This document shows, one piece after another, positions 169 to 4,468 of a stretch of 11,732 nucleotides of DNA. A program made the translations under genes and the position numbers. Within the stretch, counting starts at the first letter, position 1; every line of letters starts with the position of its first letter. Below the pieces are notes generated by a model. It was given only the letters and a program-made list of their open reading frames with translations. It had not been told where the DNA came from and ran no database searches. Origin of the DNA: a virus (taxonomy: Duplodnaviria; Heunggongvirae; Uroviricota; Caudoviricetes); the IMG/VR virus record IMGVR_UViG_2548876857_000009; one strand, given 5' to 3'.

Positions 169-240
169 TGGAGCACCTGTGTTGTTCTGAGGTGAGCATA
201 TCACCTCTGTTCAGGTGGCCAAATTCAGTGTGCCACTACA
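1..240 (-). mobile_element. Left end of an IS911-like (IS3 family) insertion sequence; only ~240 bp lie in the window and the element continues past the window start
   Basis: Minus strand read from ~240 gives TGTAGTGGCACACTGAATTTGGCCACCTGAACAGAGG..., a TG-initiated terminal repeat as in IS3-family ends, followed ~70 nt later by the orfA start. I recognise the terminus and the OrfA N-terminus as IS911 from memory; not database-verified. Confidence 0.8.
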
Positions 241-1415
241 AAGTAAGCCCACCACTGCATCATCGGACGACGTTGCTCAAGGTAATCACTGCGGTTGTAA
301 GCGCGACGTACCTCATTTTTGTCTACATGAGCCAGTGCTGCTTCAATGACATCAGGCGGGAATCCTTCCTCATTGAGTGCCGTACTAGCGATAGAGCGTA
401 AACCGTGTGATACGAGTACGCCTCCTAAGCCAGCACGCTTAAGTGCGGCATTAACTGTTTGGCTGTTCATTGGCTGGGTTGGTTTGATGCGACTGGGAAA
501 GATAAACTCTCGGCCACCACTGAGTGACTTCATCATTTCCAGAATAGAAAGAGCCTCATCCGATAGTGGAACCGTATGGTCTCGGTTCATCTTCATACGA
601 GCTGCTGGAATTTTCCATTCTTTAGCACTGAAATCGATCTCATCCCATCGTGCCTCAGCGGCTTCGGCAGGGCGGGTAATGGTGAGAAGCTGCCACATGA
701 ACAAGCACCGCGTTGACATACTGATACTTGCTGTACGCATTGTTTGCATTAACTGTGGAAGCTGATCCGGACGGATACTCGGCATGTTTTTCTTTTGCGG
801 TTTCTCGAACGCTTTTCCGATATTTACACTGGGAACTGCATCAATCAGGCCTGTGTTCTGCGCATAAATCATGACTTCGTTAATACGCTGACAAAGGCGG
901 CGAACAGTCTCTAATGCACCTCTGGCCTGAACCGGCTGAACAGCTTTAACCAGAGTATGAGCCTAAATCTCAGTGACGCTGATATCACCGATTGCTGGGA
1001 AAACATCTCTCTCAAGCGAGCGCCAGATATCGTCGGCATAGTCCTCTGTTACGCTGGCTTTCTTCACATTCCACCAACGCTCGGCAACTAACAAGAAGGT
1101 GTTGGTTTTGGCCTCTTGAGAATTCCTCACCTGTTCTTTCTGGTGTTCCTGAGGATCAATATCTTTTGCCAACAAAACTCGAGATTCAGCTCTGAGTTTA
1201 CGCGCATGAGAAAGGGAGACAGCAGGGTAGGCACCGAAGCTCTGCTTGGTTCGCTGTTTGGTTAGAGGCCGATAGTAACGGAACTGCCAGAGCTTACTAC
1301 CGCTGGACTTTATTAACAGGGTCAGCCCATCACCATCATAAAGCTGGTAATCGGCATCTTTAGGTTTGGCGGCTTTGATTTCCGTATCGGTTAACGGCTT
1401 GGTTTTTCTTGCCAT
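225..1415 (-). pseudogene. int: P4-type tyrosine integrase, disrupted by an in-frame TAG at 963-965 and by replacement of its C-terminal end with the IS911 terminus
   Basis: ORF-track ORFs 963..1451 and 225..872 are in the same minus-strand frame, separated only by one TAG. Joined, they align end to end with the intact integrase at 10521..11732 (MARKTKPLTDTEIKA vs MARTTRPLTNTEVLRA, and HGLRSIASTALNEEGFPPDVIEAALAHVDKNEVRRAYNRS in both). Start taken at the ATG at 1413-1415, preceded by GGAG. The last ~5 codons and stop (225-242) fall inside the IS terminus. Confidence 0.8.
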
Positions 1416-1434
1416 GGGGAGTCTCCATGCGTTT

Positions 1435-1471
1435 AGGCCCAACGAAAACAATAGAGCTTTTCGTTGGGCCT
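1435..1471. repeat. Perfect 14-bp inverted repeat (AGGCCCAACGAAAA / TTTTCGTTGGGCCT) with 9-nt spacer, ~20 nt upstream of the int pseudogene start
   Basis: Read directly from the sequence; function unknown (possible operator or 5'-UTR hairpin). Confidence 0.5.
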
Positions 1472-1535
1472 ATCAATGGGCCTAAAAGGTTCGGATTTAA
1501 TTAGTTCTCTTCGGACTTCGCGGGACAAATTGAAG

Positions 1536-1572
1536 ACACAAAAAAGCCCGCAGGGCTTGTGCCGTGCGGGCT
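1536..1572 (-). terminator. Rho-independent terminator on the minus strand
   Basis: 8-bp GC-rich stem AGCCCGCA/TGCGGGCT (1545-1552 and 1565-1572) with 12-nt loop, followed on the minus strand by UUUUUGUGU. It lies downstream of the alpha-crr transcript and of the tRNA-3'-end-like segment. Confidence 0.6.
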
Positions 1573-1618
1573 CTTAGGACTTCATCGGATGACTCTGGTA
1601 ATCACCGATGGAGAATTT

Positions 1619-1640
1619 TGGTGGGCTGGCGGAGTTTGAA
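1619..1640 (-). other. Candidate att core or direct repeat: tRNA/tmRNA 3'-end-like segment ending in CCACCA on the minus strand
   Basis: Plus strand TGGTGGGCTGGCGGAGTTTGAA reads on the minus strand as TTCAAACTCCGCCAGCCCACCA. From memory this resembles the 3' end of E. coli ssrA/tmRNA (…TTCAACTCCCGCCAGCTCCACCA). It sits ~200 bp upstream of the integrase start on the same strand, the usual geometry for tRNA-integrated P4-type elements. No full tRNA is present here. Confidence 0.35.
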
Positions 1641-1775
1641 TAAATATTATATCGCTTTGATTTTTAACGATTTTGTTTAATTCAGTTTTTGTGCGTATAC
1701 CTAATCGTATACCAATGGCTGTAAGTTAATGTGAAATGAAAGCGCATTTTTACTTGGATTGATGCTATATCGTAC

Positions 1776-1910
1776 AGGAAAAAAAATTTTTTTTCGAAAG
1801 AACTGTTCACACTGTTCACCTTTCTGTTTTCTCCTTTTATTTCATAGTGATAGGTGGTGAATAATGGGTGAAGGGTGAACATTCGATTCTTCACCTCCGG
1901 CATTCTGCCG
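1776..1910. repeat. crr (cis replication region) direct repeat copy 1, with type-I iteron octamers
   Basis: Contains TGTTCACACTGTTCACC and the inverted GGTGAA...GGTGAAGGGTGAAC. Near-identical to copy 2 exactly 180 bp downstream (1803 aligns to 1983). Confidence 0.8.
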
Positions 1911-1955
1911 GTGTGACTCATACCGGTGATTAATCCTCCGCACTGAAATCACTCA

Positions 1956-2090
1956 GGAAGAAAAAAGTTTTTTTTGATTTGATTGTTCACACTGTTCACC
2001 TTTCGTTTTTCTCTTTTAATTTCAGTGTGATAACGGGTGAATATACGGTGAAGGGTGAACAGTGGATTGTTCACCTTCGGGGGATTCAGG
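1956..2090. repeat. crr direct repeat copy 2
   Basis: Same octamer arrangement as copy 1 at 180-bp period. Matches the P4 crr description (two ~120-bp direct repeats separated by ~60 bp) located just downstream of alpha. Confidence 0.8.
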
Positions 2091-2134
2091 GATGAAAAAA
2101 GACCGGCAGATGCCGGTCAGATGAGTCATGAGGG

Positions 2135-4468
2135 TCAGGTTGTTGCAGGGTCGTCACATTTTGGCAGCCAGTCGCCGTAGCTTTCCTCTTTCAGTGTCAG
2201 GTTGGTCTGTATCCCCTGTTTGGTATGGCGCTTCTCGTAATTCAGTCCGTATTCCTTCAGCATCACCGGCAGCCCCAGCCCGAACATTTTCAGGCTGAGT
2301 ACATTCCGGTAGCCGTTTGCCTCCATGTAGGCCAGATAGGCGTGATAGAGGTATTTACGGTAATTACGCGGGATGATACTGGCGTTCCCCATATACATGC
2401 CGCTGGTCTGCGGCAGGGTTTCCAGATAGCCGATAAAATCAAACGTCGGGTCGGCATCCCGTTTGATGTTCAGTGCCTCGTCTGAGTTCTGCTGGGACTG
2501 AAGCAGTGACCGGGCGAGCATCGGGTCGCTGAACTTCTGCATCAGGTGACGCACGATGACCGCCAGCTCGCGGGTGATTTTGTCCTTAAGCTGCGGGTCG
2601 CGCTCCTGCGGGGCTATCTGTTCCGGGAAGTGAATAATCACCCGCCGGCGTGACACGCCGCCGCTGCGGTCGGTGAAGCGCATCGGGTTATTGTTCACGG
2701 CCAGAATCACCGCCGGGATGTGCGTGGAGTATGCATCCCGGTATTTCGGGTCAACGGACACCGCATCGCCGCCGGTGATGGCCTTGAGTCCGGCACCGTC
2801 GCCGCTCCATTTTTCCTGGTCCGGCAGGCGTATCAGTGAGAAGCCAGTTAACGCGGCACGTTCACGCGGGGATTCCAGCGTCTCGATGGTGGCCGACGTG
2901 GCGTTATCCTCCCCGGCCAGCAGGGTGGCTATTTCGGCCATGATACTTTTGCCGCTGCCGCCGGGACCGGTCACCTCCAGAAAGAGCTGCCAGTCGTAGC
3001 GGTTTGCCAGCACCATAAACAGTGCGGCCAGAATCACGTCGCGTTTTTCCGCACGGCCACCGGCGGCACGGTCAAGCCAGCGCCAGAACGCGGGGGCGTG
3101 GGTTTCCAGCGTTTCCCCTTCCACCGGCGGGGTGAAATCCACATCGCACAGGGTGCGCATCCAGTGTGACGGACTGTGCGGGTGGAACGTGCCGTTCTGC
3201 GTGTCGAGCACGCCGTTACGAAAGCCAATCAGGCGGCGGGAGGGGGCTTCCTGCTGCGGAATAATCAGCTTCAGGGTGTCCACCACGGAGGCCACCTTCC
3301 CGGAGGAGAACGGCGCACGCAGCCGCTGAAACAGCCCGGCCACATCCCGGGCAAAGTCCTGTGGTGGCAGCACCTTCCAGACACCATTTTCATAACGGGA
3401 CAGAAGCTGGCCGTTGGCATCGACCGCGAGCGCCTCGCCGTAATGCTCATAGATACGCATGGCCTTTTCGCTGGTACTCATGGCGGAAAACTCCGCTTCG
3501 CTCATGGTGTCGAACGGGCTTTCAGCCGGTGGCCGGATGGCATCGTAAATGGCCTTACGGGTGGCTTCCCCGCCGTACTGCGTGAAGGCATCATTCCAGT
3601 CACCGAAGACCGGCGGCAGGGCAACAACACCTTCACACGCATCTGCGGCTGCGGCGGCTTTTTTCTGGCCGTCACCGCTGAGGTCACGGTCTGCGGCAAG
3701 GACAATCTGACAGGCCGGATGCTTCTGCCGGGCAAGGCTGGCCAGAGAAAAGAGGTTCACGGAAGAAAGCGCCACCATCACCGTTTCACCGGTCAGGTGA
3801 TGTACGGTAAGTGCGGTCGCGTATCCCTCCGCTATCCACAGACGTTTTCCGGCCTGATTCTGTCCTTCAAGGATGTGACAGGTGCCCCTGACCTGCCCGC
3901 CTTTCAGGGTGCGCTTACGGCCGTCAGCGCTGATTAACTGAAGGTTAACCAGTTCGCCGCTGTCGTCATACAGTGGCACCACAAGGTCACCGGCGCGCCA
4001 GCTCACGCCACCGGCTCTGTGTGTGCCGGTCAGCATCCGGCATTCCCGGCCGGGAAAGCCCTTGCGGGTCAGGTAGGCGTTACCGGTTCCGGTACGGGTT
4101 TTCGCCATCAGGGTTTGTGCCAGTGCGGCGGCGTTCTTCCGGGCAGCGTCTGTTTCAGCGCCGGCGGCGGCCGTCACTGCCGGGTCAGCCGGGGGCAGGC
4201 TGCCGGTCACGGCAGCCACCTTTGCGGCCGCGTCGGACGGGGAAACACCAAACACCTTTTCAACCAGTTTCAGGCCGTCACCGGCACCACACTGATTGCA
4301 GTACCAGGTGCCGCGCCCCTCCCTGTCATCAAAACGGAAGCGGTCACTCCCGCCACAGACCGGACAGGGCTGATGACGGTTCTTAAGCACCTGAATCCCC
4401 AGCGCCGGGAGAATACGCGGCCAGTGGCCGAGCGCATGGCTGACGGTGGCGGTTACGTTCATTTTCAT
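2135..4468 (-). CDS. alpha: P4 alpha-type replication protein: N-terminal zinc-binding primase fused to a D5/SF3-type helicase
   Basis: 777 aa, the same length as P4 alpha. N-terminal Cys motif CPVCGGSDRFRFDD...CNQCG; Walker A VTGPGGSGKS in the C-terminal half. RBS AAGGAGAA 8 nt upstream of the ATG at 4468. Sits between cnr and crr as in P4. Confidence 0.9.
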   Translation of the reverse strand: MKMNVTATVSHALGHWPRILPALGIQVLKNRHQPCPVCGGSDRFRFDDREGRGTWYCNQCGAGDGLKLVEKVFGVSPSDAAAKVAAVTGSLPPADPAVTAAAGAETDAARKNAAALAQTLMAKTRTGTGNAYLTRKGFPGRECRMLTGTHRAGGVSWRAGDLVVPLYDDSGELVNLQLISADGRKRTLKGGQVRGTCHILEGQNQAGKRLWIAEGYATALTVHHLTGETVMVALSSVNLFSLASLARQKHPACQIVLAADRDLSGDGQKKAAAAADACEGVVALPPVFGDWNDAFTQYGGEATRKAIYDAIRPPAESPFDTMSEAEFSAMSTSEKAMRIYEHYGEALAVDANGQLLSRYENGVWKVLPPQDFARDVAGLFQRLRAPFSSGKVASVVDTLKLIIPQQEAPSRRLIGFRNGVLDTQNGTFHPHSPSHWMRTLCDVDFTPPVEGETLETHAPAFWRWLDRAAGGRAEKRDVILAALFMVLANRYDWQLFLEVTGPGGSGKSIMAEIATLLAGEDNATSATIETLESPRERAALTGFSLIRLPDQEKWSGDGAGLKAITGGDAVSVDPKYRDAYSTHIPAVILAVNNNPMRFTDRSGGVSRRRVIIHFPEQIAPQERDPQLKDKITRELAVIVRHLMQKFSDPMLARSLLQSQQNSDEALNIKRDADPTFDFIGYLETLPQTSGMYMGNASIIPRNYRKYLYHAYLAYMEANGYRNVLSLKMFGLGLPVMLKEYGLNYEKRHTKQGIQTNLTLKEESYGDWLPKCDDPATT

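Follow-up and report, generated by a model that had tools for sequence, protein, structure and literature searches.

A very probable attR site of a P4-like satellite prophage within a tandem array of ssrA islands in E. coli

P4-like satellites, ssrA arrays, replacement terminators, and the deletion of T357 from ssrA together with its physiological consequence have all been described, and the feature that we discuss here is hence of a kind that is already known. Williams is said to have noted in 2003 that the ssrA integrase seems routinely to damage its own attachment sites, and a limited set of conserved sequences reportedly serves as ssrA terminators. In P4, which targets leuX, attP is laid out as crr, two tandem 12-bp repeats, a gap of 53 nt, a core of 20 bp, a further 112 nt, two repeats, an inverted repeat and int. 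Sequenced excisants of CP4-57 from E. coli carry an ssrA gene without T357, which reads CGCCAGC-CCACCA and is inactive in trans-translation (PMC10107115), and excisants of CP4So from Shewanella carry an ssrA gene with the same one-U deletion, by which tmRNA function is abolished (PMC5148205). Excision of the island is coupled to this loss of tmRNA function and to a switch to ArfA rescue (PMC10107115).

The DNA that we analyzed, hereafter the window, comprises 11,732 nucleotides of the IMG/VR record IMGVR_UViG_2548876857_000009. A feature on its minus strand (1640-1619) is, with high confidence, the attR site of a P4-like satellite prophage of about 10.3 kb that resides in the 3' end of ssrA, within a tandem array of ssrA islands. 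The first-pass annotation had proposed an att junction at this place, with the distal copy of a direct repeat and a replacement terminator next to an integrase gene. The junction and its repeat copy stand, as the attR of the satellite; the terminator and the left integrase, on the other hand, belong to a neighboring island of the IntA/CP4-57 type. Judged from its homologies, the junction is a hybrid site, with the P arm and core of the satellite on one side and, on the other, the integrase-proximal arm that an older CP4-57-type island contributed.

The satellite prophage and its distal end

In the window, an E. coli P4-like satellite prophage is found that comprises an integrase, psu, delta, a C4-type RNA, the alpha primase and the cis replication region crr. 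The core gene set of such elements was found through Pfam (Psu, Ogr_Delta, the primase-helicase domains and the integrase), through Rfam (C4 and c4-a1b1) and through crr. Along the minus strand, the order is integrase, a 328-aa cargo ORF, Psu, the Ogr/Delta protein, an ORF at the position of sid (without Pfam match and assigned by position only), the C4-type, isrK and c4-a1b1 RNAs, alpha and crr. The integrase (10521-11732, minus strand), whose GTG start codon is the last base triplet of the window, is a tyrosine recombinase of the P4 subfamily according to its Pfam domains. It adjoins ssrA in three related loci (L001, L003 and L004), is 63% identical to IntA of K-12 and 36% identical to P4 Int, and is the enzyme that made the attR junction. 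The alpha primase-helicase (2135-4468, minus strand) was recognized by Pfam and from the annotations of sister genomes, and it possesses its own terminator. The adjacent crr (1781-2095, minus strand) is P4-like and contains TGTTCACC-type repeats, of which the second copy was read as well; its part from 1930 to 1781 is 98.7% identical to the annotated crr of P4.

Between 5919 and 6195 on the minus strand, Rfam reports the C4 antisense RNA (74 bits), isrK (72 bits) and c4-a1b1 (49 bits), all above their gathering scores; the satellite has its P4-type immunity RNA region here. The 328-aa ORF, located on the plus strand (9283-10269) between psu and the integrase, has a match neither in Pfam nor in PADLOC. 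P4-like satellites often carry anti-phage systems in a variable cargo slot, and we take the position of this ORF to be that slot. In sister elements, the position is occupied by two hypothetical proteins (L001), by an 885-nt ORF (L003) or by a SIR2-family protein (others).

The minus strand reads TTCAAACTCCGCCAGCCCACCA from 1640 to 1619, a 22-mer in which three parts can be told apart: the element-specific TTCAAACT (1640-1633), the 8-nt block CCGCCAGC (1632-1625), which is the same as in ssrA and is the likely exchange block, and CCACCA (1624-1619), the displaced terminus of ssrA without T357. As the first-pass annotation had stated, this imperfect copy resembles the ssrA terminus without being identical to it. 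When it is compared with the last 23 nt of E. coli ssrA (TTC-AACTCCCGCCAGCTCCACCA), 21 of its 22 bases align, with three single-base indels. Taken by itself, the match is weak and only modestly better than chance, with a local alignment score of 27 against the last 30 nt of ssrA that is equalled by 6 of 300 dinucleotide shuffles of the window. We nevertheless regard it as non-random because its position coincides with two homology breakpoints. Similarity to the satellite in other genomes stops at window 1618-1624, exactly at CCACCA, and from there rightward the window is 98-99% identical to the element in other E. coli genomes; from 1636 leftward, it is about 96% identical to the ssrA terminus of K-12 and the following 200 bp, up to intA. 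A complete tRNA had been noted as absent, and over the window ARAGORN indeed detected no tRNA or tmRNA gene and Rfam no tRNA/tmRNA at gathering score, with neither a complete tRNA-like fold nor a tmRNA body being present.

Comparison with the ssrA gene of the host and a search for a second copy beyond the right edge had been proposed as checks. The first gave the 3'-end match and the homology of the following DNA just described. As to the second, ssrA is intact in the closest complete genomes, has a perfect ...CCCGCCAGCTCCACCA end and is located past the right-hand integrase, at a distance of about 184 bp; three annotated sister genomes share the order smpB, ssrA, int, satellite genes, alpha, the 22-mer copy and a second int pseudogene. 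In the sister genomes, ssrA is followed by CTTGCTCTTCC..., by a terminator that is homologous to but unlike that of the window, by GGTATACG repeats (two direct, two inverted) and by the start of the integrase. Because the 22-mer matches the ssrA 3' end, and because the closest complete genomes have an intact ssrA beyond the integrase, we assign the 22-mer, which lies 10.1 kb from the satellite integrase, to the attR of the satellite. The element, 10.3-10.6 kb in length, fills the window, with the 22-mer as its distal repeat copy. To judge from genomes with 96-99% identity to the window, attL and an intact ssrA should lie beyond the right window edge. Past 11732, we expect about 184 bp with GGTATACG repeats and a terminator, then ssrA ending in ...GGGTTCAACTCCCGCCAGCTCCACCA; the satellite's own replacement terminator would thus be found outside of the window, between ssrA and its integrase.

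K-12 provides the empty site, in which ssrA is joined directly to the right flank of the window's junction (AAATTCTCC...). The satellite separates the two in the window and in L001, and in this comparison of occupied with empty site the element boundary coincides with the repeat. The copy recurs where the satellite ends in L001, L003, L122 and further loci, whose right flanks differ, and the left flank of the satellite together with the copy meets unrelated right flanks in L003, L122/L004, L033, L035 and L110. The right flank of the satellite end is a third integrase type in L003 and the native sequence ATCATGATTGG in L122 and L004. In FORC 064, a third island type, with yet another terminator and integrase, adjoins this satellite end. 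In complete E. coli genomes, the matches that span the junction carry no annotated feature at this point. The exact left boundary of the satellite prophage is now fixed at window 1619.

The attP-derived DNA between crr and the core (1641-1780, minus strand) forms the P arm of the satellite and holds two tandem 12-bp arm-type repeats. Exact copies of GGTATACG are located at 1713-1706 and 1701-1694 on the minus strand, the only two in the window, upstream of the 22-mer and 51 nt away from it. In front of the satellite integrase, two direct and two inverted copies are present in L001, L003, L004 and L007, and in L003 the integrase-proximal repeats begin 112 nt past CCA. The GGTATACG repeats flank attP on both sides and are predicted arm-type binding repeats of the integrase. 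A 79-aa ORF (1682-1921, minus strand) overlaps the crr repeats and the att arm; it has no Pfam match and is very likely not a gene.

A contiguous attP of a close relative, with an integrase 92% identical to that of the satellite, is contained in the viral contig L007, in which TTCAGACTCCGCCAGCTCCACCA is enclosed by the P arm and the P' arm. The order in this contig is alpha, crr, GGTATACG repeats, TTATTCAGACTCCGCCAGCTCCACCA, CTTGCTCTTCC..., terminator, GGTATACG repeats and integrase, and its attP has 15 nt (CCGCCAGCTCCACCA) in common with ssrA. A free attP of the exact TTCAAACT lineage was found in none of the viral, phage, plasmid, E. coli and metagenome collections. The phage and plasmid collections, searched for an unintegrated attP, returned only P4 crr or weak matches; a synthetic attP query against E. 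coli genomes returned only attR sites, aligned through their homologous terminators, and no satellite-satellite tandem; and a single metagenome scan for attP gave two unrelated chance matches with a G at the variable position.

The missing T357

The copy in the window lacks T357, and this form matches Table 1 of PMC10107115. We surveyed IMG/VR and one genome per species with a pattern consisting of ACTCCGCCAGC, a T or none, and CCACCA, and retained AT-rich left flanks that end in TCAR. The T is absent from 86 of the 93 surveyed junctions and from 46 of the 47 species-representative genomes, in about 20 genera of Enterobacterales, and the missing-T form stands on at least 14 unrelated right flanks. 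In 21 of the junctions without T, an integrase gene begins 155-224 bp downstream, and these are internal array junctions like that of the window. The reverse order of the islands, with a CP4-57-type P arm followed by a satellite-type arm and integrase, is likewise without T (L152, L112, L136). The free attP (L007) has the T, as do L008/L100 and a few attR sites (L034, L099, L162, L037). The missing-T form in the window is consequently the norm among such junctions.

Several loci deserve mention in their own right. The IMG/VR contigs L034 and L122 have an identical satellite P arm and native right flank, yet the former contains T357 and the latter does not; the state of the T is therefore polymorphic independently of both flanks. 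In L004 (NZ_CP173544, 13090-13105), a satellite end on the native flank has lost four further bases (CGCCAGC-----CA), a loss that Table 1 of PMC10107115 lists as the second class of recurrent lesion and that would probably immobilize the element. In many Enterobacteriaceae other than E. coli (L132, L137, L161 and other GTDB loci), the missing-T copy is followed by AAATTCTCCATCGGTGATTACC..., and no integrase was detected within 2.5 kb. This flank may represent the ancestral native region downstream of ssrA, captured by CP4-57-type elements.

An exchange inside CCACCA, the only run common to attL and attR, with the missing T contributed by the attP of the satellite, was considered as well. We rejected it because the excisants of CP4-57 and CP4So carry an ssrA gene without the T and because the attP of L007 has it. 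As the excisants of both islands lack T357 in ssrA, the exchange that is inherited lies, for the IntA type, 5' of T357, within the shared CCGCCAGC, and the missing T is on the displaced side. By analogy, the satellite integrase, with its 63% identity, would exchange within CCGCCAGC too. A simple conservative exchange at this position predicts a T in the window copy, since the same right flank has a T next to ssrA in K-12; the T is absent despite this prediction, so that an extra step is needed.

A systematic process fits the survey, and a simple conservative exchange 5' of T357 does not, because the T is lacking in the large majority of junctions (86 of 93), on at least 14 right flanks and in either island order, but is present in the free attP. 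We therefore entertain, as a tentative reading to which we give somewhat less than even credence, that the loss of T357 was made or propagated by the recombination system itself and not by decay. T357 may lie inside the overlap region, in which case the missing-T state would segregate between the partner sites and selection would keep the T only in the working ssrA. The integrase may, alternatively, delete T357 during integration. If the origin in the recombination system were true, every island of an ssrA array, the satellite included, would be "addictive", with its excision switching off trans-translation. The missing T could also persist through inheritance over successive island turnover combined with selection against loss.

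It is doubtful, by comparison, that the missing T and the general imperfection of the copy reflect the random decay of a useless displaced fragment, unlinked to the recombination system. Selection for tmRNA function does not act on displaced fragments, and the few junctions that keep the T (L034, L099, L162, L037) fit an intact copy that mutates later. However, decay should yield varied lesions, and what is found is one and the same single-base loss, shared by 86 of the 93 junctions and by 46 of the 47 species-representative genomes, regardless of island order and across the 14 or more right flanks; the only other recurrent form, CGCCAGC-----CA, is a deletion that begins at this very position.

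The neighboring island and the origin of the junction

The minus-strand DNA from 1618 to 1416 is the integrase-proximal (P') arm of a neighboring ssrA island of the IntA/CP4-57 type and shares about 96% identity with the K-12 sequence downstream of ssrA. It includes the hairpin that had been reported from the letters of the window as a GC hairpin with a U-run some 45 nt downstream of the copy. The distance is 46 nt on the same strand; positions 1572-1561 pair with 1556-1545, and the T-run extends from 1545 to 1540. A terminator scan detects this hairpin (1540-1572, minus strand), and its position is identical to that of the terminator after ssrA in K-12, in line with an ssrA-type replacement terminator of the neighbor's P' arm. 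The scan yields three hits in 1300-2300 against 1.4 expected, a count that is not significant alone; the argument rests on the z-score of the fold and on covariation. Folding of the 116-nt stretch gives -38.2 kcal/mol (z = -5.4), a value matched by none of 200 shuffles. For covariation, 20 versions of the hairpin, all different and taken from the attL and attR sites of several types of island, were placed in a gap-free alignment, in which 92% of the cells are paired and four pairs are changed on both sides; at the 12/21 pair, for instance, G-C is replaced by A-U in six sequences. The covariation score is reached by none of 500 shuffles, and slid registers score far lower. A GC-rich hairpin, a U-run behind it and a conserved structure are thus all present, as in a predicted Rho-independent terminator. 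This pattern supports a putative role of the hairpin at the RNA level, consistent with each island supplying its own ssrA terminator, and transcription would be expected to terminate here. The copy in the window no longer follows ssrA.

Between CCA and the terminator, the neighbor's P' arm folds into a small hairpin (1584-1609, minus strand), and the same sequence is found after ssrA in K-12. The small hairpin at this place differs by island type (compare the window with L003, 3822-3842 and 14110-14135), and a conserved GAAGTCC/GAAATCC motif follows each of them; hairpin and motif together might be a processing element for the 3' end of pre-tmRNA. Further downstream (1434-1484, minus strand), TAGGCCCA occurs as two direct copies (1484-1477 and 1472-1465) and one inverted copy (1434-1441), three exact matches against 0.24 expected, which we assign to the left integrase as its arm-type repeats; in K-12, intA is preceded by the same TAGGCCCA trio.

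The ATG of the left integrase is found at 1415, 203 nt after CCA, in keeping with the spacing of about 200 bp on the same strand given in the first pass. This gene (225-1415, minus strand) is a pseudogene of the IntA/CP4-57 type, with an in-frame stop at 965-963 and with its Pfam domains (Arm-DNA-bind_3, Phage_int_M and Phage_integrase) split over two ORFs; for its counterpart in a sister genome, the annotation gives a pseudogene with an internal stop. The two integrases of the window are 63% identical to each other. But for the single in-frame stop in codon 151 (963-965, minus strand), the left integrase is intact, and its inactivation is probably recent because there is only this one stop.

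The terminator and the small hairpin are indeed those of the left integrase, as are the TAGGCCCA sites, and the same 200 bp stand before intA in K-12. One might therefore regard the copy and the terminator as nothing but the attL of the left IntA-type island, its gene-proximal junction, both derived from the attP of that island, a reading that we consider quite improbable. In K-12, the arm follows a complete ssrA, whereas there is no ssrA body here, and the left 8 nt of the copy, together with the 160 bp upstream that contain GGTATACG, go with the satellite, whatever the right flank. Since this left part travels with the satellite, it is to be read as the satellite P arm, and the site as a hybrid.

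It is very improbable that the region encodes a tRNA-like gene or a small RNA, such as one of the IsrM type with its end at the terminator. Rfam gives a weak local match to IsrM at 1540-1596 on the minus strand (33 bits, E = 1e-7), but it comprises the terminator module only, leaves 274 of the 329 model positions absent and stays well below the gathering score of 376 bits of RF02763; there is, moreover, no tRNA or tmRNA in the window and no promoter-like site upstream on the minus strand in 1640-2300. That RF02763 matches only by its last ~50 positions, which are the terminator module, suggests that the end of IsrM itself is formed by an island-arm ssrA terminator of the displaced or replacement kind. 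Chance, finally, can be dismissed as an explanation of the ssrA resemblance, despite the 6 of 300 shuffles that equal the score of the 22-mer, as the copy coincides exactly with two independent homology breakpoints and recurs at element ends in dozens of genomes.

With the feature read as the attR of the satellite, we propose the following course of events. The P4-subfamily integrase of the satellite would have recombined the element's attP with ssrA, this attP having the order crr, two GGTATACG, a spacer of about 51 nt, TTCARACT-CCGCCAGC-TCCACCA, its own terminator, arm repeats and int. The ssrA gene would have been left intact, with the TCCACCA end and the terminator of the satellite, beyond the right window edge. 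The former terminus of ssrA would have been displaced to 1624-1619, where it would still be joined to its old downstream DNA, comprising the hairpin, the terminator and the TAGGCCCA sites of the older IntA/CP4-57-type island. In analogy to the excisants of CP4-57 and CP4So, the IntA-type relatives for which such activity has been published, excision of the satellite would leave a defective ssrA. What was observed directly are the breakpoints in homology, the repeats in the arms, a geometry like that of P4, the intact attP of a relative and the prevalence of the missing-T form. The window hence spans two mobile elements, and the terminator and each set of arm repeats are assigned to the correct integrase. 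The junction is another instance of the documented ssrA arrays with displaced ends without T357, and its main value lies in annotation.

Comparison with CP4-57, P4, CP4So and IsrM

The satellite shares its ssrA target with CP4-57 of K-12, an island with an integrase (IntA) of the P4 subfamily. The attR of CP4-57 in K-12 reads TTCAGACTCCGCCAGC-CCACCA, followed by ATCATG..., and differs from the window copy by one base; its attL arm in K-12 is about 96% identical to window 1618-1416, including the terminator and the TAGGCCCA repeats. In contrast to CP4-57, the element in the window is a P4-like satellite with another gene set (alpha, crr, psu, delta and the C4-type RNA), and the arm motif TAGG(A/C)CCA of CP4-57 stands against the arm-type motif GGTATACG of the satellite. 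Furthermore, the window junction is internal to an array, with the arm of another island and no native chromosome on its right side.

P4 and the satellite share the order alpha, terminator, crr, repeats, core ending in CCA, repeats and int, and the gaps of 53 and 112 nt in P4 find a close match in the 51 and 112 nt of the satellite. One inverted arm repeat is annotated in P4, and two are present in the satellite. The core of P4 consists of the last 20 nt of tRNA-Leu including CCA, and its arm motif is GGGGGCA, whereas the satellite targets ssrA. Similarity to P4 ends at window 1781, which constitutes a sharp module boundary. Because crr is 98.7% identical to that of P4, but the adjacent att arm is unrelated and the integrase only 36% identical, the comparison indicates that the whole int/att module has been swapped between satellites for one that targets ssrA.

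CP4So from Shewanella oneidensis, which has a P4-type integrase and resides at ssrA, possesses an attR with the same one-U deletion (PMC5148205); its host and cargo are different, and it is not a P4-like satellite. The IsrM sRNA of Salmonella (RF02763) resembles the locus in its last ~50 nt, which are the same conserved ssrA-type terminator module, and differs from it in the IsrM body, which is absent from the window.
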